DNA of 64,000 nt from assembly GCA_965249725.1 (NCBI GenBank), contig OZ252251.1, positions 608,001 to 672,000 on the forward strand. The letters run 5' to 3'. This document shows, one piece after another, positions 3,907 to 53,384 of the stretch. Origin of the DNA: Longimicrobiales bacterium. Its GTDB lineage: Bacteria > Gemmatimonadota > Gemmatimonadetes > Longimicrobiales > Gaopeijiaceae. How positions within the stretch are numbered: the stretch's first letter is position 1; every line of letters begins with the position of its first letter. The translations under genes and the position numbers were made by a program. The notes beneath the pieces were generated by a model, which had not been told where the DNA came from, made no database searches, and saw only the letters and a program-made list of their open reading frames with translations.

Positions 3907-4406
3907 AAGCCCCTCCTTAATTTTCGTTCGGCCCCGATCCCGTGGGTACGGCATCGCGGCCGATGAAGTCTCGGTCTCAAGCGGACAAGGGCGAATGCAC
4001 GGTTGGGCCCGTGCATGTCTGTCCCCTCTCGGCGCGACGGAGCCGTGAGGACCTCGAACATACGGTGCGGATAGGCTCACGTCCAACCCGTCCTGCCCTC
4101 CCCCCTCGAATCCCCCGTTCTTAACCATATATTTCGACTCTTTATGAGGAGATGTGGTTGCTTCATGCAGTTCGGTTCAGCTCATGCCACCGGTGCTCTC
4201 ATAGACTCAGAGGAGAGGGTGGATCTCGGTCAGGGGGAGCTGTTTCGTAAGGGGAGGGAGGCGAGCCCGCACGGAGGAAGGGAGATCTCGACGGCGTCAG
4301 CGGTGTAGCAGGGATCGAACGTCGTGCTCTGCTCGGACCAACGCTATATTCTAGCCGCGTGTCAGAATAGACCAGGCATTATGCATCAGGAGATGTGCGA
4401 ACAGAC

Positions 4407-5090
4407 ATGAAGACCTATATGACTCAAACCGGCACGCTGGCCCTGACGGCGGGCCTCGTCGCTCCGTTCCTTTGGCCGACCCTCGGTCCCACGGCAGAGG
4501 CCGACCATCCGGCAACCGGGACGGTGCAGGGTACCGTGACTTTTGAGACTGTACCGGACGACGAGTTCTTCGAGATGTCGGACGCGGTGATCTACTTGTC
4601 CGGAGAGGGCCTGGCGGGCGCTCCGGCGGCGGCACGCACCCCCGAACAGCTGTTGCTGGACCAGATCGACTACACGTTCGTGCCCAGGGTGATACCGGTC
4701 TTGGCAGGGGACGTAATGTCGTTCCACAACAGTGACGACGAGCTCCACAACATCCATACGTACGCCAAGGGTCGGCGGCGGAATCGTAATTTCAATCGCG
4801 GCCAGCGACCCGGTTCGACGTTCACCGGCGTCTTTGCCAGACCCGACAGCGTTCGGGTGCTTTGCGACATCCACTCGCAGATGATTGCGCACATCCTGGT
4901 GCTCGAGAACGGATTCTTCACCAAGGTGAGCGACGACGGCACCTACTCCATCGGCAACGTGCCTCCGGGCCAATACGAACTCACGGCGTGGAGCGAGTGG
5001 CGCGGCGAGGTGAAGACCACCGTCGAGGTCGGAGACGGCCAGACGGTTACCGCAGACGTGGTCTTGCGGGACGCTGCAGGGGACCGCTAG
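4407..5090 (+). CDS. Exported cupredoxin-like / carboxypeptidase-regulatory-like domain protein
   Basis: Signal peptide; LDQIDYTFVPRV, HNIH, CDIHSQM, and C-terminal GTYSIGNVPPGQYELTAW. Confidence 0.8.
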   Translation: MKTYMTQTGTLALTAGLVAPFLWPTLGPTAEADHPATGTVQGTVTFETVPDDEFFEMSDAVIYLSGEGLAGAPAAARTPEQLLLDQIDYTFVPRVIPVLAGDVMSFHNSDDELHNIHTYAKGRRRNRNFNRGQRPGSTFTGVFARPDSVRVLCDIHSQMIAHILVLENGFFTKVSDDGTYSIGNVPPGQYELTAWSEWRGEVKTTVEVGDGQTVTADVVLRDAAGDR

Positions 5091-9274: not shown

Positions 9275-9480
9275 GCTCTCACCTCCGATTGGCTGAGGTC
9301 GGGTAGACGTGCTCGAAGCGGGTCGGGGGACCATGAACTGTTATCCCCTTTGCCGCCCTCCCACAAGCGTCAGTGCCTACCCTCCGCCCAGTGCTTTCGG
9401 GGTTCTTGACCAGGCGCCCGCAGGCCGCAGATTGAACCGGCGAGTAACCTATCGACCGCTGAGCCCGTGGGAGGCTCCTG

Positions 9481-10329
9481 ATGAGATTTCGAAACCAACC
9501 CCGCCGCGGCCGATCCGGCCGCTTCGCGATATGTATCGAGACTGCTGTGTCTTCGATCCTGGTCTTTGGACTGTCGGCTTGTGGTGGGGACGCCGGCGGC
9601 GGAGCCGAGCGCACCCCTGTGGCGGAACAGCCGGCGGCGGGGGCCCCAGGTGGTGGCGACTCGGGCTACGCCGTAGTCACGGTTGACGACCCAGGTTCGA
9701 TCAGCGGCACCGTCAGCTTCTCCGGAGCCGTGCCCGCTCCCCGCAACGTGGCCGTTTCCGATGATGTGGAGGCGTGCGGCACTTTGGTCGAGGTGCAGGA
9801 TCTGGAGGTCGGCCCGGGCGGCGGGCTGGCGAACGCGGTCGTATCCCTTACGGACATCACCCGGGGAGCCCCCCTGGAGGCGTCGGCAGTTCCTCCCACT
9901 CTCGACCAGCGGGGCTGTCGGTTCTCGCCCCACGTCGTACTCGCGGCGGTCGATGAGGTCGTGGAGATTCTGAACAACGACCCCGTGATGCACAACGTCC
10001 ACACCGTGGCGTTCGACAACCGTGCGTTCAACCGAAGTCAGCCTCCCGCCGTGAAGAAGATCGACGCGAGCTTTCAGGTTCCCGAGAAAGTCCGAGCGAA
10101 GTGCGATATTCACGGGTGGATGAGTGCCTGGGTCGTGGTTGTCGACCACCCGTACTACGCCGTCACGGGCAGTGACGGAAGCTTTGTCGTCGAGAACGTC
10201 CCCCCCGGAACCTATACGCTGGAGGTGTGGCATGAGGCCTTGGGAGCCACCACCCGGACGGTGATGGTTACGGGCGGTGAGACTTCAGATGCGAGTGTGG
10301 AGTTGACGCAGGACGCGCCCCGACCGTGA
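9481..10329 (+). CDS. Lipoprotein with cupredoxin-like and carboxypeptidase-regulatory-like domains
   Basis: Lipobox LSAC; LDQRGCRFSPHV, HNVH, CDIHGWM, VPPGTYTLEVWHE; stop overlaps next start (GTGA). True start may be a little downstream. Confidence 0.8.
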   Translation: MRFRNQPRRGRSGRFAICIETAVSSILVFGLSACGGDAGGGAERTPVAEQPAAGAPGGGDSGYAVVTVDDPGSISGTVSFSGAVPAPRNVAVSDDVEACGTLVEVQDLEVGPGGGLANAVVSLTDITRGAPLEASAVPPTLDQRGCRFSPHVVLAAVDEVVEILNNDPVMHNVHTVAFDNRAFNRSQPPAVKKIDASFQVPEKVRAKCDIHGWMSAWVVVVDHPYYAVTGSDGSFVVENVPPGTYTLEVWHEALGATTRTVMVTGGETSDASVELTQDAPRP

Positions 10330-12356
10330 ACTTCCGCCCATCCGGGTTCCTGGCGAAGAACACGTCGGTGCGATGCACCATGGTCGTCGCCGGTTGCGTA
10401 CTTGTCTGCCTTCTCTTCCCCGAGGTCCTGTGGGCCGTCCAGGGTGAGGCCCTGTCGTCGGGCGAGACCGTCCGAACCTTTTTCGGGCTGAGCCCCCGAG
10501 CCACAATATGGGTAGTGGCCCAGTTGCACCTCCTGTTCGCGGCATTCGTTCTCGGCGTTCCGATCTTCGCTGTTATCGTGGAATTCATCGGGTGGCGTAC
10601 GGGTGAGCAGCGCTATGATCGCCTGGCTCGGGAGTTCATCAAGCTTCTGACCGTTGCGTTCGCCACGACCGCCGCCCTCGGGGGGCTCCTGGCGTTCACG
10701 CTGTTCGGACTCTATCCGACGTTCTCGGGCTACTTCATCAGCATCTTTTCGCCGTCGCTTTACATCTACGCGGCGTTTTTCTTCGTTGAAACGGGGATCC
10801 TCTACAGCTACTACTATTCATGGGATCGCCTGATGCATCACAAGGGCGTCCACATCACCCTCGGCGTCTTGCTCAACTTGGCAGGCACCGTCCTGGTCTT
10901 CATCTCAAACGCGTGGGCTTCGTACATGATGAGCCCCGTCGGCGTGGACGAGACCGGCACCTTCGTCGGCACTACGATGGAAGCGGTCACGAATCCCCTT
11001 TGGATGCCGTTGAACATCCATCGTGTCCTGGGGAACGTGGCGTTCGGCGGGTTTGTCGTGGGTGCCTATGCCGCTGTCAAGTTCCTTGCCGCTCGCACGG
11101 AAGAGAGGCGGGCCCACTACGACTGGATGGGGTACGTCGGAAACTTCATCGGCCTGGCGGCACTGATACCGCTACCCTTCGCCGGGTACTACCTGGGTCG
11201 AGAAGTCTACAGCGCCAACGCGGTCATGGGAAACAACATGATGGGTGGGGCTTTCTCCTGGACCTTCATCTTGCAGGCCGCGCTCGTGGGCATGCTGTTC
11301 ATTATCGGCAACTACTACTTATGGTCGGGGATGAACCGCATTCCCGGAGCCGAGCGGTATCAGAGATTCGTCAAGTACTTCAACGTCATTCTGATCGTTT
11401 GTGTCGCCATCTGGCTCACCCCCAGGAACCTGCCTCTGAGCGCCGAGGAGCAGCTCGCGCTGGGGGGTCAGGTCCACCCGGTGCTGGGCTATTTTGGCCT
11501 GATGGCGGCCAAGAACGCGGTCATCAACTTCATCATCCTAACTACCTTCGCGAGCTTTCTGCTCTACCGAAGAGCAAACAAGACCGACTTGGTGCCGGTG
11601 TCGGAGCAGGGTCGTGGGGCCGCGACCCTCATCCTGCTGGCGGGCGGGTTGTGTCTGCTCATCCTCGGGTGGTATGCCAGAGTGCTCTTCACCTTGCCCC
11701 CGGACTCGCTGGGTCTAGGACCCGAGAAGGCGATATACGTCCAGATCCCCGCGTTCCTCCTCGTGGCTACGATGCTTGTTGCGGTTGTGTGCGTTGTCTT
11801 GTCGCTTCGGGACCGAGGCCACCTCGCCCAGATAGTCTATGTGGTCACCGTGGCCCTGGGGTCGGTGGGTGTGCTCGGAGTCTACGGGTTCGTCGTCATG
11901 GTGCAGGCCAATCCGCTATTGCGGCAGGTCGCGGCCACACAGTGGCTGATACTCATGTCGGCGTTGATCCTGGTCACCGCCATCGATGTTCTCCTGTTCC
12001 GGGGAGCCAGAAGCCTCGGGGCCATTCGCTGGGGCGAAGTCACGGCCCGCTCCCAGTACGCGTTGATCGCCCTCTGCGTGACCATAGTCTTGACCATGGG
12101 GCTCATGGGGTTCGTGCGCTCCGGGCTCAGGGAGAACTGGCACATTTACGGCGTCATGCGGGACACGTCTGAGTGGGGCTTCACTCCCACGACGGCGGTG
12201 ATGACACAGATGGTGGGAGCCATTACGCTCCTGTTTCTGACGGTTGTGGCTTTCTTGTTTTGGCTCTCGGGCCTGGATGCGAAGGAACAGGTGCCGGCGG
12301 AGTCCGAGGCGTCGGGTCCACGGAAACCGGTGCTCGAACCCGCAGGATCGGATTAG
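10326..12356 (+). CDS. Cytochrome bd-like oxidase subunit I (CydA-like, divergent)
   Basis: Polytopic membrane protein with CydA-like segments AQLHLLFAAFVLG, FFVET, NAWASYMMSP, NPLWMPLNIHR, MGFVRSGLRENWHIYGVMRDT. Confidence 0.85.
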   Translation: MNFRPSGFLAKNTSVRCTMVVAGCVLVCLLFPEVLWAVQGEALSSGETVRTFFGLSPRATIWVVAQLHLLFAAFVLGVPIFAVIVEFIGWRTGEQRYDRLAREFIKLLTVAFATTAALGGLLAFTLFGLYPTFSGYFISIFSPSLYIYAAFFFVETGILYSYYYSWDRLMHHKGVHITLGVLLNLAGTVLVFISNAWASYMMSPVGVDETGTFVGTTMEAVTNPLWMPLNIHRVLGNVAFGGFVVGAYAAVKFLAARTEERRAHYDWMGYVGNFIGLAALIPLPFAGYYLGREVYSANAVMGNNMMGGAFSWTFILQAALVGMLFIIGNYYLWSGMNRIPGAERYQRFVKYFNVILIVCVAIWLTPRNLPLSAEEQLALGGQVHPVLGYFGLMAAKNAVINFIILTTFASFLLYRRANKTDLVPVSEQGRGAATLILLAGGLCLLILGWYARVLFTLPPDSLGLGPEKAIYVQIPAFLLVATMLVAVVCVVLSLRDRGHLAQIVYVVTVALGSVGVLGVYGFVVMVQANPLLRQVAATQWLILMSALILVTAIDVLLFRGARSLGAIRWGEVTARSQYALIALCVTIVLTMGLMGFVRSGLRENWHIYGVMRDTSEWGFTPTTAVMTQMVGAITLLFLTVVAFLFWLSGLDAKEQVPAESEASGPRKPVLEPAGSD

Positions 12357-12361
12357 CACGC

Positions 12362-13336
12362 ATGTCGGCTCTCAAGATCTCGGTCTTCACCATGTGCCTC
12401 ATCGGCCTTTTCATCTGGGCGGGAGGCGCGATCACGCGGGTGTCGGGCGAGGGCGCCCCGGCGGCGTTGGGTGAGGGACTCAGCGTGGAGAACGGGGAGC
12501 AGATCTTCTGGGGCCCGGGAAAGTGCAGCACGTGCCATTCCATCGGGAGTCGCGGGAGTTCCGTGAGGGGCCCGAACCTCGGCCAGTCGGTGGTGGGTCC
12601 GGAGATGGCCATCCGGGCCGTGGAACGGGCACGTGAGCGGTCGGCGGCCCTTGGCAGGACAGTGACGGGTACCGCCTACCTGATCGAGTCCATCGCCGAA
12701 CCGGGCGCCTATGTGGTCGATGGCTTCAAGAACGAGATGCCGATCGTTTACGAGCCGCCTATCAGCCTCGGGCCGGATCAGATCGGCTCCGTCATCCTTT
12801 ACCTTCAGTCCCAGGGTGGCTCACCCGATCCCACGGCCGTGGTGCTGCCCCCTGAGATCCACGCTGCAGCCCGTCGGACCAGCGACGCGGAGCCGTGGGC
12901 ACCTTACATGGATGGCGATTCTCTTGCGGGCCGTGAGCTGTTCTTCGATCTGGAGGGACCGACTCCCTGCGCCAAGTGCCACAGGATCGACGGAGAGGGC
13001 GGCGATGTGGGGCCCGACCTCACGGGCGTCGCTGGAATGCGAACGGCACAGTTCATCGTGGAGTCGATTCTTCAACCCAGCAAAGTAATCGCCGGAGGGT
13101 ACGAGGCTGTCCTCGTGCAGACGACGGACGGGCGCCTCTTGGACGGCGTAATCCGGCGGGAGACCGAGGACACGGTGTGGCTGGCCACGGCCGACGGGGT
13201 GGAGTTCGCCCTCACTGCCGGGAGCATCGCTCGTCGGCGAACGCAGGAGCTATCCCTCATGCCGGGCGACTTTGCCGATCTCCTGTCGGTTGGCGGCCTG
13301 CACGACCTCTTGGCGTTCCTCCGAACACGGCAGTAA
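12362..13336 (+). CDS. Membrane-anchored diheme c-type cytochrome with putative heme-binding C-terminal domain
   Basis: CSTCH and CAKCH; YLIESIAEP, GPDLTGV, ESILQPS, SLMP. Confidence 0.85.
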   Translation: MSALKISVFTMCLIGLFIWAGGAITRVSGEGAPAALGEGLSVENGEQIFWGPGKCSTCHSIGSRGSSVRGPNLGQSVVGPEMAIRAVERARERSAALGRTVTGTAYLIESIAEPGAYVVDGFKNEMPIVYEPPISLGPDQIGSVILYLQSQGGSPDPTAVVLPPEIHAAARRTSDAEPWAPYMDGDSLAGRELFFDLEGPTPCAKCHRIDGEGGDVGPDLTGVAGMRTAQFIVESILQPSKVIAGGYEAVLVQTTDGRLLDGVIRRETEDTVWLATADGVEFALTAGSIARRRTQELSLMPGDFADLLSVGGLHDLLAFLRTRQ

Positions 13337-13348
13337 AGGAGCACTGAC

Positions 13349-14140
13349 TTGGTAAAGGAAGGCGAACCTCGCGTGGGGGGAAGCGGCTTTGCGGCGGCGG
13401 CGGTCACCTTCATCGCGGTCTACGTGGGTCTTCGCTTCGGGGTCCCGTGGCTCGCCGTCCTCGTTGGGCTGAGTCAGACTCCTGCGCCCGTTCCGGGGTT
13501 CGCGCTCGGGGGCTACATGGCGTGCGTCGTTGTGGGCACGTTGGTCTACATGAGTGCTGAAGAGGGACGCTGGCACCTGTTCCTCGTTCCGGTGGTCGGG
13601 GTCTTCACCATCCCCGCCGAGGGCCCGCGGCGTGCCCAGTTGGTGATTCTGGCGCTTATCCCGTTGCTTGCGGGATGGGCGGCGTGGCGGCGGTTGGTGC
13701 CCCCCCCCCGCACCCCGGCCGTAATCCGCGTTCAACACCCGGCCCTCCCCGACCAGTTCGCGGCACTCGAGAACCCGTACGGTGAGGCGTCGCAGGAGGA
13801 ACGAGCGCTACTCGAGCGCGAGGGCGTCGTTCTCTACCAGAAGAACTGCAGGCCCTGCCACGGGACGAAGGCTGACGGGTCAGGGCCTTTGGCTAGGGGT
13901 CAGCGTCTTCGGCCCGTCGATTTTGGCGATCCTGGAACGATCGCCACCGTGGTGGAGCCCTACCCCTTCTGGAGGATCAGTGAAGGGACGAAGGGGCTGC
14001 CCGGCATCGCCACGCCCTGGAACTCTGCCATGCCCTCCTGGGGAGAAGAGCTCGACGACGAAGAGATCTGGCGTATCATCATGGCCGAGTACCGTCTAGC
14101 GGGGACCGAGCCCCGCCGGCCGGAGGGCTCGGAGCGATGA
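13349..14140 (+). CDS. Membrane-bound monoheme c-type cytochrome
   Basis: Three N-terminal hydrophobic segments; CRPCH; distal SAMPSW; SD AAAGGAG before TTG. Confidence 0.85.
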   Translation: MVKEGEPRVGGSGFAAAAVTFIAVYVGLRFGVPWLAVLVGLSQTPAPVPGFALGGYMACVVVGTLVYMSAEEGRWHLFLVPVVGVFTIPAEGPRRAQLVILALIPLLAGWAAWRRLVPPPRTPAVIRVQHPALPDQFAALENPYGEASQEERALLEREGVVLYQKNCRPCHGTKADGSGPLARGQRLRPVDFGDPGTIATVVEPYPFWRISEGTKGLPGIATPWNSAMPSWGEELDDEEIWRIIMAEYRLAGTEPRRPEGSER

Positions 14141-15840
14141 GTGCGTGGGTCGGAAGAGGCTCGGTCGTCGCCCTATTGGCGGTTGGGCTTTCTGGGATAG
14201 CGCCGACCGACGGCGCGGCCCAGTGGTACGAGCTCCGTGTTCCCGAGAGGCCGGCTCTGGATGACACCGACGTCGAGAAGGGTAGGGAGGTATACCAGGA
14301 GCGCTGCTGGTTCTGTCACGGTGATGACGGCGACGGCGAGGGTCCGGTAGCGCCATACCTCTTTCCGCGGCCCCGGGACTTCACCATGGGCAGCTTCAAG
14401 CTCCGCACGACCCAGAGTGGCGAGCTTCCCCTCGATGAGGACCTCTTTCGGACGATTACGCTGGGCATCGACGGCACCGCCATGCCGGGCTGGGAATCCC
14501 ACCTCACCGAGGAGGAGCGGTGGCAGGTGATCGCGTACGTCAAGAGCTTCGCCGCCGATCTCTTCGAGGACGAGTTTTTCGATCCGTACCAGGCCATCGT
14601 AGAGATTGGAGACCCGCCGGGTGGGGCCCAGGAGGATCTGGTCGCGGCGGGCCAGATCGTCTTCGACGAGAACAAGTGCTGGGAGTGCCACGGAGCCCTC
14701 GGGCGAGGGGACGGCGACAGGGCCCCCGAGCTGACGGACGATTGGGATTTCCCCATCGCGCCCACCGACCTCCATGTTGGATGGAAGATCAAAGGAGGCC
14801 GGTCGGTGCGCGAGCTCTACCTGCGCTTTTCGACGGGCCTCGACGGCACGCCCATGCCCTCCTATGAGGCGACCGTCGGCGAAGAGCAGCGGTGGCAGTT
14901 GGCCTATTACGTGGCTTCTCTCACCGGCGACGTGGAGGACGACGATTCGGGCGGCGGCGTCATCATTCCCGGGCGCCGAATCGATGGTCCGCTACCCGCG
15001 GGACCCCTCGACCCCGCGTGGGAATGGGCCGCAGAGGTTTCGGTGCCGTTGACGGGTCAGGCCACGTTCGCGCCCCGGTGGCAGATCCCGGCCGTGACGG
15101 ACCTGGCTGTCAGGGTGCTTTTCAACGAAGACGAGATCGCTTTTCGCCTGGCTTGGGACGATCGATTCGCCGATACGACCGCGGTCGACTCGTTGCTCTC
15201 CCTTTCGGAAGGATGGAGTGCGGACGACACCTATCCGCGACTGTTCCCCGACGGTGGGCGAGTGCGCGGGTACTTCAGTGATGCGGCGGAGGTCATGATT
15301 CCCGTGCGTTACGAGGAGAGTCCGGTCCTGCCTCACTTCGTATACGGGAATGCCGGCAAACCCGTGGACCTCTGGCGATGGCAGGCGGACCGGCAGTACG
15401 CTCACGCAAACACAGCGGCCGTGGTGGAGCTTCGTGCGGCCGGCGCTGAACGGCCACCGGAGCCCCATGCCTTGGAGAGTCAGACCGCGACGGGAGGCGG
15501 CGTTTGGGCCGACGGTCGCTGGTCGGTCGTGATCCGCAGACGCCTCCGGACGGAGGAGGGCGCGGCGGAGGTGCAACTCCGCCCCGGGGATCTGATTCCC
15601 CTGGCCTTCCACGTGTGGGAGGGAAACAACGGAGAGACGGGACTCAGGATGAGCCTATCGTCGTGGGCGTTCCTCGATCTGCATGAGCCCGCCCCGGTTA
15701 TGACCTACTTCGCCGTGCTCTTGGTCGTCATCCTCGCTGGGCTGCTCGAATTGGGCGTCGTCCGATGGAGCGCACGACGACGGGCCACACCTTCTCCGTT
15801 CGAGAGAGGCGTGGATCCGCCCACCTATAGCGAGAGTTGA
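14137..15840 (+). CDS. Diheme c-type cytochrome fused to ethylbenzene-dehydrogenase-gamma-like (EB_dh/DOMON) heme-binding domain, C-terminal TM anchor
   Basis: CWFCH, PRPRDFT, CWECH, GTPMPSY; then IAFRLAWDD, FSDAAEVMIP, VDLWRWQA, GRWSVVIRRRL, AFHVWEGNNGE; hydrophobic C-terminal helix. Confidence 0.85.
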   Translation: MSAWVGRGSVVALLAVGLSGIAPTDGAAQWYELRVPERPALDDTDVEKGREVYQERCWFCHGDDGDGEGPVAPYLFPRPRDFTMGSFKLRTTQSGELPLDEDLFRTITLGIDGTAMPGWESHLTEEERWQVIAYVKSFAADLFEDEFFDPYQAIVEIGDPPGGAQEDLVAAGQIVFDENKCWECHGALGRGDGDRAPELTDDWDFPIAPTDLHVGWKIKGGRSVRELYLRFSTGLDGTPMPSYEATVGEEQRWQLAYYVASLTGDVEDDDSGGGVIIPGRRIDGPLPAGPLDPAWEWAAEVSVPLTGQATFAPRWQIPAVTDLAVRVLFNEDEIAFRLAWDDRFADTTAVDSLLSLSEGWSADDTYPRLFPDGGRVRGYFSDAAEVMIPVRYEESPVLPHFVYGNAGKPVDLWRWQADRQYAHANTAAVVELRAAGAERPPEPHALESQTATGGGVWADGRWSVVIRRRLRTEEGAAEVQLRPGDLIPLAFHVWEGNNGETGLRMSLSSWAFLDLHEPAPVMTYFAVLLVVILAGLLELGVVRWSARRRATPSPFERGVDPPTYSES

Positions 15841-51447: not shown

Positions 51448-52134
51448 TCAACGGACCTCGGGTCCCCCCGTCCGATCGTCCGGGACGAATCGATCTCGTG
51501 CCGGCATCACCACCGCCGGCAGGGTCTCGGCGTTCATGACCGCGTCCTCAGGGATGATCTCGTTGAGGTAAAGGACGTAGGCCACGGCACCGTAGACCTC
51601 GTTCGGTGTGAGCGAGCCCGGCGACTCCAACGGCATCGTGCGCGTGACGTAGTCGAAGATCGTGGTGGCGTAGGGCCAGTAGTTTCCGACCGTCTTCGTG
51701 TATTGCCCCCGGGCCGCGCCGAACGGGAAGCCCTCGCGTGGCTCGCGACCGACCAGGCGGTCATTCGGACCCTCGGTGCCGGTGGCCCCGTGACAGACCG
51801 CGCACTTGGCCGAGAACACCTGTGCACCTTCGGCGACGGTTGCACCTCCGGGCGGCAAGCCGGCTCCGTCGGGCCGGACGTCCTTGTCCAAGGCGGCGAT
51901 CTCGGTCGCAGTGGCATCCCGGCCGATCTCGAAGGTGGCAGGCCAGTGCGCCGGAGCCGCTGATGCAACCGGAGGGGGCCCGAACCCGGGAGGGGTCTGC
52001 CGCCCGGCCGAACCCTGTCCACTCGGTGCGGCCGCATCAGGCTGGCACGCCGTAAGGGCGACAGCCAGCCCGATCAGAGTCGCGGCCACTCGATGAGAGT
52101 CACGCAATCCGGAGTCGCTACGTGCGCGGCTCAT
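51448..52134 (-). CDS. soxD: SoxD-like c-type cytochrome
   Basis: DVRPDGAGLPPG; CAVCHG; TVGNYWPYATTIFDYVTRTMP; overlaps soxC stop. Confidence 0.82.
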   Translation of the reverse strand: MSRARSDSGLRDSHRVAATLIGLAVALTACQPDAAAPSGQGSAGRQTPPGFGPPPVASAAPAHWPATFEIGRDATATEIAALDKDVRPDGAGLPPGGATVAEGAQVFSAKCAVCHGATGTEGPNDRLVGREPREGFPFGAARGQYTKTVGNYWPYATTIFDYVTRTMPLESPGSLTPNEVYGAVAYVLYLNEIIPEDAVMNAETLPAVVMPARDRFVPDDRTGGPEVR

Positions 52135-53384
52135 GCTGTATCTCCGCTACCGAAGAAGACACGTCCGTCAGCCTGCACGCTCCATGGTCTGATGCTGTTG
52201 TAGTGGTAGGCGCTTCCTTCGCCTCGGGCCGCCATGAGCGTTTCGAGGCTGGGTTGCGTGTATCCGGTCTCATCGATCGCGCGACTGAGCAGAGTGGTCG
52301 CCCGCCCGTCCCAATTCCAGAGGTGACGGAATCGAGTCGTGCACTTGGAGAGCACGGGCTCCTGAAGCTCGGCCGGCTGCCATGTGCGCCCCCCGTCCGT
52401 ACTCACTTCCACTCGAGTGATGCCGCCCCGCCCGCTCCAGGCCAGTCCAGTGATCTCCCACCAGCCACGCTCCGGGAGCACATACGGGAAGGTGGGGAAG
52501 GTGATCGTGGACTTCGCGTCCATCACGAGGCTGAACTGGCGCGAGGTGCCGTCGGCTAGCGGGTCCGTGTACTTGGACGTCTCGTCTCGTGTCATGAAGG
52601 GCCCGTCCGACACCTCGATGCGTCGGATCCACTTCACCTGAGCATTCCCCTCCCATCCCGGGAGGAGGAGTCGGGCCGGGTATCCCTGTTCCGGCCGGAT
52701 CGCCTCACCATTTTGCCCGAAGGCGATCATGGCGTCGTCCCATGCCTTCTCCAGAGGGACGCTCCGGCCCATGACGGCTGCATCGCCGCCCTCGGCCAGC
52801 AGCCAGGTCGCACCGGGCCGCACCCCCACCTCGCGCAGGAGGGTGGCAAGTGCCACGCCCGTCCACTCACTCGTGCTGAGGAGTCCGTCGATCTGCTGCG
52901 GTGAGACTTCGGGGCGGGGCTCGCGGTTGTAGGCCGCCCCACCATTCCCTGAACACTCGACGAAGCAGAGGCGAGATACCGCCGGGAGGCGCTTCAGGTC
53001 GCGCAACGTGAACGTCATGGGTCGCTCTACCATGCCGTGGACCACGAGCGAATACTGTTCCGGCTCGATGTCGGGAATCCCCCCGTGGTGCCGTTCGAAG
53101 TGGAGATCGGCCGGAGTGATGATTCCGCGAAGCTCATGGATGGGAGTCCGTGAGGAAGACGAAGGACCGGGCCGCATTCCCGCGCGTCTCGGCTGTTCCC
53201 CCGGCGCCCTCTGACCCAGTTCGCTGGTCCCCCTTCCAAGCACCTTCGTGGGGTCCGGCGGGGCTTGCTGGGGTGTGGGTTGAGCGTCACCCAAGGAAAG
53301 GGCGTCGGCCTGCGTCTTGAGGAGGCCGCCGGCGATCAGGCCTCCGGTTGCTCCGAGCATCGCGCGGCGTGACAGGCGGGCCAT
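52131..53384 (-). CDS. soxC: SoxC-like sulfite/sulfane dehydrogenase molybdopterin subunit
   Basis: Tat SRRAML; GIITPADLHFERHHGG; FVECSGN (Mo-ligating Cys); RPEQGYPARL; ETSKYTD; GLAWSG. Confidence 0.88.
   Translation of the reverse strand: MARLSRRAMLGATGGLIAGGLLKTQADALSLGDAQPTPQQAPPDPTKVLGRGTSELGQRAPGEQPRRAGMRPGPSSSSRTPIHELRGIITPADLHFERHHGGIPDIEPEQYSLVVHGMVERPMTFTLRDLKRLPAVSRLCFVECSGNGGAAYNREPRPEVSPQQIDGLLSTSEWTGVALATLLREVGVRPGATWLLAEGGDAAVMGRSVPLEKAWDDAMIAFGQNGEAIRPEQGYPARLLLPGWEGNAQVKWIRRIEVSDGPFMTRDETSKYTDPLADGTSRQFSLVMDAKSTITFPTFPYVLPERGWWEITGLAWSGRGGITRVEVSTDGGRTWQPAELQEPVLSKCTTRFRHLWNWDGRATTLLSRAIDETGYTQPSLETLMAARGEGSAYHYNSIRPWSVQADGRVFFGSGDTA

Follow-up and report, generated by a model that had tools for sequence, protein, structure and literature searches.

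The stretch of DNA analysed here (the window: 64,000 nucleotides of contig OZ252251.1, positions 608,001 to 672,000, from a Longimicrobiales bacterium of the Gemmatimonadota) carries a five-gene module encoding a CydA-like membrane protein, three cytochromes c and a cupredoxin. The module is of a known membrane electron-transfer kind that has never been purified, and we are inclined, with somewhat less than even confidence, to regard it as a complex-III-like oxidoreductase between quinone and cytochrome c or cupredoxin rather than as an oxygen reductase. Earlier publications already cover the gene family, its set of five genes and the two hypotheses on function, including the likeness to alternative complex III (ACIII), and therefore the locus alone is not a discovery. 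What the locus adds is an intact, selected copy of the long, anammox-type form, standing alone in a host that has neither Nxr nor Nar and that carries a short copy too. The genes of the module are the following.

Gene 1, 9481-10329, plus strand: cupredoxin lipoprotein, kustd1713-like (282 aa; lipobox LSAC34 and type-1 Cu motif)
Gene 2, 10326-12356, plus strand: OR-N (N2-like) CydA homologue, long anammox-type form, orthologue of kustd1712 (676 aa)
Gene 3, 12362-13336, plus strand: membrane-anchored diheme cytochrome c, kustd1711-like (324 aa; TIGR02603, 2 CxxCH)
Gene 4, 13349-14140, plus strand: three-helix membrane monoheme cytochrome c, kustd1710-like (263 aa; 1 CxxCH)
Within gene 4, 13736-13738, plus strand: codon of His130, in an invariant R-x-x-H-P
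Gene 5, 14137-15840, plus strand: diheme cytochrome c with an EB_dh-like domain and a C-terminal helix, of the kustd1709 or alt-NxrC type (567 aa)

These genes are tightly coupled: genes 1 and 2 share a GTGA overlap and genes 4 and 5 an ATGA overlap, with 5 nt between genes 2 and 3 and 12 nt between genes 3 and 4. They encode five CxxCH motifs in total (0, 0, 2, 1 and 2 in genes 1 to 5). The arrangement and motif count given in a preliminary description, which was made from the letters alone, are thereby confirmed. Pfam places cytochrome c domains in genes 3-5 and EB_dh in gene 5, and finds Cyt_bd_oxida_I on gene 2 at residues 58-296 only (E 2.8e-27).

The same five genes are found in the same order in the anammox bacterium Kuenenia stuttgartiensis (kustd1713-kustd1709), and the Kuenenia and Brocadia orthologues of the CydA-like subunit are 52-57% identical to that of the window. 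In the literature (PMC6423088, PMC8387239) this set counts as the accessory half of the nxr cluster of anammox bacteria; the latter paper, in its part on the cluster, describes the cluster and not the CydA-like subunit. The anammox loci examined here run from cupredoxin, CydA-like subunit, diheme, monoheme and diheme/EB_dh cytochromes to a tetraheme cytochrome, a further monoheme cytochrome and UspA, which is the published order of kustd1713-1706 (PMC6423088). In the window, unlike in Kuenenia, the tetraheme cytochrome (kustd1708), UspA and nxrABC do not follow the module.

The CydA-like subunit and its partners

The AlphaFold2 model of gene 2 (pLDDT 88, pTM 0.87), built from a 79-sequence alignment that left out three partial or doubtful sequences of 80, has an N-terminal signal-like helix and 15 predicted membrane helices. 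It matches CydA structures with Z values of 32-35 over about 350 residues (best Z 35.1, 355 residues, rmsd 3.9), among them those of the canonical CydAB enzymes (E. coli bd-I and Geobacillus bd). Compared with these it has six extra helices and a long branch, and it lacks the Q-loop with the quinol-binding residues K252/E257, which is replaced by membrane helices. The absence of a Q-loop, together with that of any CxxCH motif in gene 2, places the protein outside OR-C. There is also no CydB partner. In the host genome (4.16 Mb, 3 contigs, 95.8% complete) PF02322 gave 0 matches, where the control matched in 9/14, and a profile of 11 CydB sequences gave no match either to the predicted proteome or to 78 related loci, so the earlier statement that cydB is missing stands.

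Aligned with the E. coli protein, H68 of gene 2 corresponds to H19, E155 to E107, H176 to H126 and H232 to H186. H68 is invariant in 79/79 sequences, and the equivalents of H19, E107, H126, H186 and M393 are all invariant. MAFFT paired E. coli M393 with L541, a pairing that was rejected in favour of M393 of the window: minimal paralogues lack residues ~420-560, and because of this helix 9 should be the counterpart of helix 7 in E. coli, which would make M393 the b558 ligand. H232 and M393 would thus form the putative b558 ligand pair, M393 by alignment. Further invariant residues that could act as ligands are H264, M306, H384 and H606.

The roles of H19, E99, E107, H126, H186 and M393 are those given by Murali et al. 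(bioRxiv 10.1101/2021.01.16.426971), where E99 is described as a proton-channel residue of bd oxidases. Where E99 would lie, every one of the 79 aligned N2-like sequences has Tyr (Y148 in the window), and at E445 they have Ser (72) or Ala (7), the window having S599. Conserved residues of each subfamily are listed in Supplementary Table 6 of Murali et al., where these changes may already be recorded. E445 is a residue that we take to be a heme ligand in the bd structures. Two shorter Nitrospirota paralogues, used as OR-N5a-like controls, retain the equivalents of both glutamates and sit behind an ACIII that has ActC; the N1, N2 and N5 labels on Nitrospirota rows are assigned from length and context. 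One CydA-like sequence, P0069 (788 aa), contains a near-exact internal duplication of ~130 residues, which is probably an assembly artefact.

After CydA, the next-best folds for the model are ActF (Z 22.7) and ActC (Z 19.4) of ACIII (ActABCDEF), whose duplicated four-helix-bundle fold is common to the subunit of the window (Z 19-23). There is no sequence homology to ActC, the identity in the structural alignment being 8-11%, and ActC has no heme ligands of the kind found here; its quinone site lies in the first helix bundle (PMC8076601). Moreover, the module of the window has no ActA, ActB or NrfD-type ActC.

Regarding the partners, gene 1 gave no Pfam cupredoxin match. Nevertheless, the profile of its family picks up type-1 copper proteins, amicyanin among them (E about 1e-5), and H171, H174, C208, H211 and M214 are invariant in 41/41 aligned sequences, which together with the lipobox agrees with the cupredoxin lipoprotein proposed before. 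The protein combines cupredoxin homology with the His...Cys-x2-His-x2-Met set of type-1 copper sites and is predicted to bind copper, the site being formed by H171 or H174, C208, H211 and M214 in a C-terminal beta-sandwich.

Natural fusions link several of the subunits. P0105 (1019 aa, from a Nitrospinota metagenome-assembled genome) joins the CydA-like subunit to a diheme cytochrome c part that is 44% identical to gene 3 over 337 columns. In L008, L012 and L017 a single three-heme open reading frame of 765-804 aa, according to gene calls made here, replaces the monoheme and EB_dh genes and is an apparent fusion of the two. In the monoheme protein the additional His130 lies outside the heme-binding motif and is invariant in 69/69 sequences; it is possibly a ligand to the heme of another subunit. 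When the cytochrome domain only of this protein was submitted to a fold search, ActE was one of several class I cytochromes that it resembled (Z 11-11.6).

In gene 5, the diheme part has a homologue in chain B of PDB 6H5L (E 1.6e-58), which is Kustc0457 of the Kustc0457/0458 complex. The EB_dh-like domain proposed for this gene is recognised by Pfam, but it has Y403 and M505 where the Met and Lys of EbdC align, residues that we presume to be the axial heme-b ligand pair of EbdC. Since the window has Tyr/Met there, heme b is not established in this domain, and H400/M505 may be an alternative pair. The Met/Lys pair is kept in 12/62 sequences, namely the ten anammox copies and two that lie beside NxrB-like genes.

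Electron transfer or oxygen reduction

In the oxidoreductase that we favour, roughly two b hemes would sit in the CydA-like subunit, which would trade electrons with quinone at a putative site. Electrons would then pass from the diheme cytochrome to the monoheme and diheme/EB_dh cytochromes and on to the cupredoxin, and the retained Glu155/His176 half-channel would render the transfer electrogenic. In this Nxr-free host the forward direction would apply, with quinol as donor and an aa3 or caa3 oxidase or NirK among the acceptors; in anammox bacteria the flow would be reversed, starting from Nxr.

We prefer this reading because both active-site glutamates have been lost family-wide and are kept in the control subfamily, because the module persists in anammox bacteria, which are anaerobic, and is co-regulated there with Nxr (PMC6423088), and because the short paralogue fills the ActC slot or has heme-copper oxidase genes in its vicinity. 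Scanning of genomes gave at least 587 relatives of the CydA-like protein, and 78 loci from many phyla were fetched, 29 with the long form like that of the window and 49 with a short form like the second copy of the host. ActE directly precedes the CydA-like gene in 29/49 short-form loci and ActB abuts ActE in 28, often with a 4-nt overlap between actB and actE; ActC was found in none of the ActE-CydA-like operons among these 49 loci. The FeS motifs of ActB are kept in 19/19 full-length proteins of the short-form operons. The actA-actB-actE-cydA-like operons without actC/D/F, which are mostly from Acidobacteriota, include L036, L042-L047, L049, L056-L058, L060-L063, L069, L072, L075-L077, L079, L081 and others. 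Heme-copper oxidase genes are nearby in 12/49. Also counted in favour were the fusions, in which the CydA-like subunit is joined to the diheme cytochrome (P0105) and the monoheme to the EB_dh protein, the aa3 operon headed by the host's own paralogue, the fold match to ActF and ActC, and the low dN/dS values. In addition, an ACIII-like, reverse-electron-flow or anchor role has been suggested for exactly the same gene set (PMC3578206, PMC6606698).

Several observations weigh in the other direction. No quinone-binding site was identified in gene 2, from which the canonical Q-loop residues are absent by alignment, and an absence of quinone-site residues is likewise reported in PMC3578206. The ActC-less operons hold the short paralogue, and Act or heme-copper oxidase genes lie within about 8 kb in 0/29 long-form loci. 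NrfD-family genes were found elsewhere in 25/25 of the ActC-less-operon genomes tested; therefore ActC could come in trans, with the bd-like protein as an oxidase behind ActE. The host has a canonical ACIII and thus has no need for another complex III. The likeness of the CydA and NrfD folds is general to CydAB and had already been noted (PMC6303296). Finally, His19, Glu107, His126 and the b558 ligands of the O2 reductases are all kept, and OR-N proteins are treated as putative O2 reductases (Murali et al., PMC10839748, PMC12342949, PMC9040806), a label that the relevant parts of these papers give without experimental proof.

The main rival is the standard reading of OR-N, a high-affinity oxygen reductase fed by cytochrome c or cupredoxin, which we judge unlikely although it has to be taken seriously. 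Electrons would flow from a b558-like heme to an altered high-spin site, located at His68, and Tyr148 and other invariant His and Met residues would take over from the lost glutamates. The CydA fold over the whole core and the invariant ligand equivalents agree with this; the invariant M306, H384 and H606 on the periplasmic side could hold another heme or Cu, and PMC6606698 speaks of a Cu site in a Nitrospira paralogue. The position after ActE mimics that of an oxidase 3' of ACIII. Moreover, the OR-N family of Murali et al., placed by them among O2 reductases with alternative donors, resembles the window in its His19-type N-terminal helices, the absence of a quinol site and the alternative electron carriers in the operon. 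OR-N2 is described as having about 14 helices, cytochrome c partners and often the sole CydA of its operon (bioRxiv 10.1101/2021.01.16.426971), and the long form of the window, with 15 predicted membrane helices besides the signal-like one, is also a single CydA; our use of the OR-N2 label rests on tree position and context, not on the subfamily HMMs of those authors, who assume O2 reduction for OR-N2.

However, the Tyr and Ser/Ala replacements affect every N2-like sequence and neither of the controls, and the operon has no CydB or CydA' for the O2 and proton channels, which Murali et al. ascribe to CydB. The module is retained and co-regulated with Nxr in anammox bacteria, and the host already has caa3 and aa3 oxidases. 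In Nitrospira moscoviensis, moreover, the oxidase candidate is bd-like_2 (NIDE0901-like), another paralogue than bd-like_3, which is the one found with this gene set (PMC6606698). Of the two roles first offered for the module, a terminal oxidase is thus disfavoured by the replaced glutamates, the anammox orthologue and the two oxidases of the host, and another redox complex fits better.

Nitrospira has a set comprising bd-like_3, alt_NxrC_2 and two cytochromes c (PMC6606698), and Nitrospina gracilis has a bd-like cluster (PMC3578206); they share with the window a bd-like subunit with a diheme/EB_dh protein, two membrane cytochromes c and cupredoxins. These hosts oxidise nitrite, whereas that of the window has no Nxr. 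In a third reading the module could be a quinone-independent membrane anchor or wire. Soluble periplasmic oxidoreductases would dock on it, such as Nxr in nitrifiers and a sulfite dehydrogenase or another dehydrogenase in this host, and it would link the cytochrome c pool electronically to that of cupredoxin, perhaps with proton translocation. An anchor role has been proposed (PMC6606698), the absence of the Q-loop fits it, the limited retention of the Met/Lys pair among EB_dh domains suggests a docking arm that varies with the partner, and a SoxC-type sulfite dehydrogenase is encoded in the same window. Nevertheless we find it rather improbable, as it leaves unexplained why ActA, ActB and ActE with intact FeS motifs are joined to an ActC-less paralogue, and as the module has no donor enzyme next to it, either here or in 7 relatives of the family that were inspected.

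If the complex-III-like reading is extended beyond this locus, OR-N2 might constitute a non-oxidase third complex III on the CydA fold, in which the O2-reducing glutamates were lost and ActC/ActF replaced in ActA-B-E operons, working forward in heterotrophs (towards aa3 or NirK, by way of its own cytochromes and cupredoxin) and in reverse, with nitrite as the electron source for quinone reduction, in anammox bacteria and nitrite oxidisers; for this wider proposal our confidence is lower still. The module is the standing candidate for the link of Nxr to the quinone pool and to O2 in anammox bacteria and nitrite oxidisers. Since an intact and selected copy exists in a Nxr-free bacterium, the module is not a dedicated Nxr accessory. 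The locus of the window offers a self-contained five-gene version for expression and assay, and the residues that separate N2-like from N5a-like proteins, along with the ActC-less operons, make the choice between oxidase and complex III directly testable. A literature search, with most subscription journals outside its scope, found no paper on bd-like or OR-N proteins in Gemmatimonadota and no description of actA, actB and actE with a bd-like gene and without actC.

Distribution and selection of the long form

Clusters of this kind had initially been thought to be known mainly from Nitrospirota. This has to be revised, since a homologue occurs in 88/151 genomes of the host's class and the family is therefore not Nitrospirota-specific; its members are spread over many phyla, and the closest named reference is the anammox set kustd1713-1709. 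The long form is scarcer, being present in 5 genomes only of the class. In the host's family a homologue was found in 58/151 genomes and the long form in 9/151; eight of these nine carriers also have the short form and the ninth genome is 60% complete. Among the matches listed, the nearest named relative is Gemmatimonadales bacterium UBA2989, with 83% identity.

In a FastTree phylogeny of 122 rows, the window falls in a 34-row clade (SH-like 100) that holds all anammox copies, apart from the 12 rows of quinol-oxidising CydA (qOR; SH-like 100). IQ-TREE, run on 37 of these rows, places it with the anammox orthologues in a 15-row clade (100/100) that is separate from six canonical qOR rows (100/100); deeper order within OR-N is left unsettled by this tree, in which long branches meet. 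A Nitrospirota pair that matches the Nitrospira/Nitrospina set is sister to the clade of the window, with weak support (81/94). The view of the protein as an OR-N-type CydA far from the quinol-oxidising enzymes is thus upheld, and neither a grouping with qOR nor a cydB elsewhere in the genome was found when looked for.

Eight Gemmatimonadota-related rows form a clade of their own in the FastTree phylogeny, the GC content of the module is similar to that of its surroundings, except for the hydrophobic gene, and synteny extends across genera. A recent horizontal transfer is not supported by these data; an older one is possible. The dN/dS ratios are 0.08-0.23 in 15/15 gene pairs, with dS near saturation, and point to purifying selection on the module of the window.

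Both forms may occur side by side. In G318 (L162-L163, C35:178000-210000) the long module, USP, radical SAM, the short module and an aa3 oxidase make up one continuous cluster, and tandem or divergent pairs of long and short forms are found in L007, L015, L020, L033, L034 and L054.

The patchy occurrence of the long form in the family could indicate a decaying, dispensable duplicate without current function, and a broken module is indeed present in G325, of the same genus (L164, C9:503000-522999). The CydA-like gene is split there, insertion-sequence-like genes cut the monoheme gene short, the locus has no EB_dh gene and several neighbours are also split or interrupted, which can reflect either decay or an assembly error. 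For the window, however, decay is very improbable: its five reading frames are intact with all motifs, the dN/dS values are low, and the synteny of the locus and a promoter-like element are kept across three genera.

A role in the reduction or detoxification of NO, another nitrogen oxide or peroxide within low-oxygen nitrogen metabolism was also considered. It draws on a type II DMSO-reductase (Nxr/Nar-like) match at E<1e-50 in 19/29 long-form genomes, on NarG in 3/4 class relatives with the long form, on the NirK and NOR-like protein of the host and on the detoxification of NO by canonical bd enzymes (PMC10839748). On the other hand, NarG-sized frames were found in only 2/8 other long-form carriers of the host's family and NirK in 4/9 such carriers against 39/151 overall; the carrier genomes are related, so these counts are not independent. 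Moreover, the Kuenenia cluster is down-regulated on NO, kustd1712 by 5.2-fold (PMC6423088). We consider this role improbable, more so than that of an anchor. A link of the long form to nitrogen oxides is common and not obligate, the idea of an obligate tie to Nar or NirK having been rejected on the NarG and NirK counts. As a separate observation, at least 14 near-full-length genes for type II DMSO-reductase alpha subunits are present in G054, the Myxococcota metagenome-assembled genome to which L034 belongs.

The host genome and the neighbourhood of the module

Searches of the host genome found no NxrA-like or NarG genes and no RuBisCO or NosZ. The host had been described as an apparent heterotroph, with which the absence of RuBisCO, Nxr and Nar agrees; no search was made for other carbon-fixation routes. 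Its caa3 and aa3 enzymes are A-type heme-copper oxidases with intact motifs, and its canonical ACIII is located away from the module. The only cytochrome b match has no Rieske gene adjoining. The idea that the module is a stand-in for a missing complex III was rejected because the host encodes this ACIII. Other features of the window and of the host genome are as follows.

9403-9433, plus strand: putative promoter-like element (TTGACC at 9406-9411, 16 nt, CAGATT at 9428-9433)
9470-9474, plus strand: ribosome-binding site GGAGG, 3' of the promoter-like element
4395-5090, plus strand: second cupredoxin of the gene 1 family (motif HN-H...CDIH-xx-M present)
51448-53384, minus strand: SoxC-type sulfite dehydrogenase (TIGR04555 above cut-off), with a monoheme cytochrome c partner
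G000:C1:256850-258700: second CydA-like gene, short form, about 48% identical to gene 2
G000:C3:1713729-1715758 (L171): fusion of NirK with a cytochrome c domain
G000:C1:781845-784108 (L087): divergent heme-copper superfamily protein (501 aa, PF00115 E 2.6e-19)
G000:C2:161107-163827 (L091/L167): formate-dehydrogenase-like molybdopterin frame with one in-frame TGA

The second CydA-like gene, whose product has two helices fewer than that of the window, has the same four partners beside it, and the genes for aa3 subunits II, I, III and IV come immediately after; subunit II is without heme c. UspA-like and AhbD/NirJ2-like radical SAM genes stand 5' in this operon (G000:C1:249042-262217, L085/L086). 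A USP gene accompanies the relatives in 42/78 loci and a radical SAM gene in 18/78, which hints at a dedicated maturation step.

Upstream of the module of the window, the promoter-like element was not flagged by a sigma-70 consensus scan; the hexamers TTGACC ... CA[A/G]ATT are also found 5' of the orthologue in 6/7 relatives. A 13-nt direct repeat (9432 and 15837) was tried as the scar of an insertion and rejected, because its upstream copy sits within the conserved promoter-like element and because the 10-mer is missing from 12/12 relative loci checked.

A DUF5916 gene and an esterase-like gene lie between the second cupredoxin and the module. In G295, G334, G294 and G333 the orthologue of this cupredoxin is the family-matched gene closest to the module on its 5' side, with two short open reading frames in between in G294. 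The second cupredoxin is likely to be an ancestral member of the module, since parted from it by two inserted genes.

The gene beside the NirK of L171 is presumably an Rrf2-like regulator, and similar regulators are found near the long module in L008, L014, L016 and L110. The heme-copper protein of L087 is NOR-like, has a diheme cytochrome c partner and gave no NCBIfam match at 1e-8. The in-frame TGA of the formate-dehydrogenase-like frame is likely to encode selenocysteine, and a TGA of this type is also present in 5/8 relatives searched.

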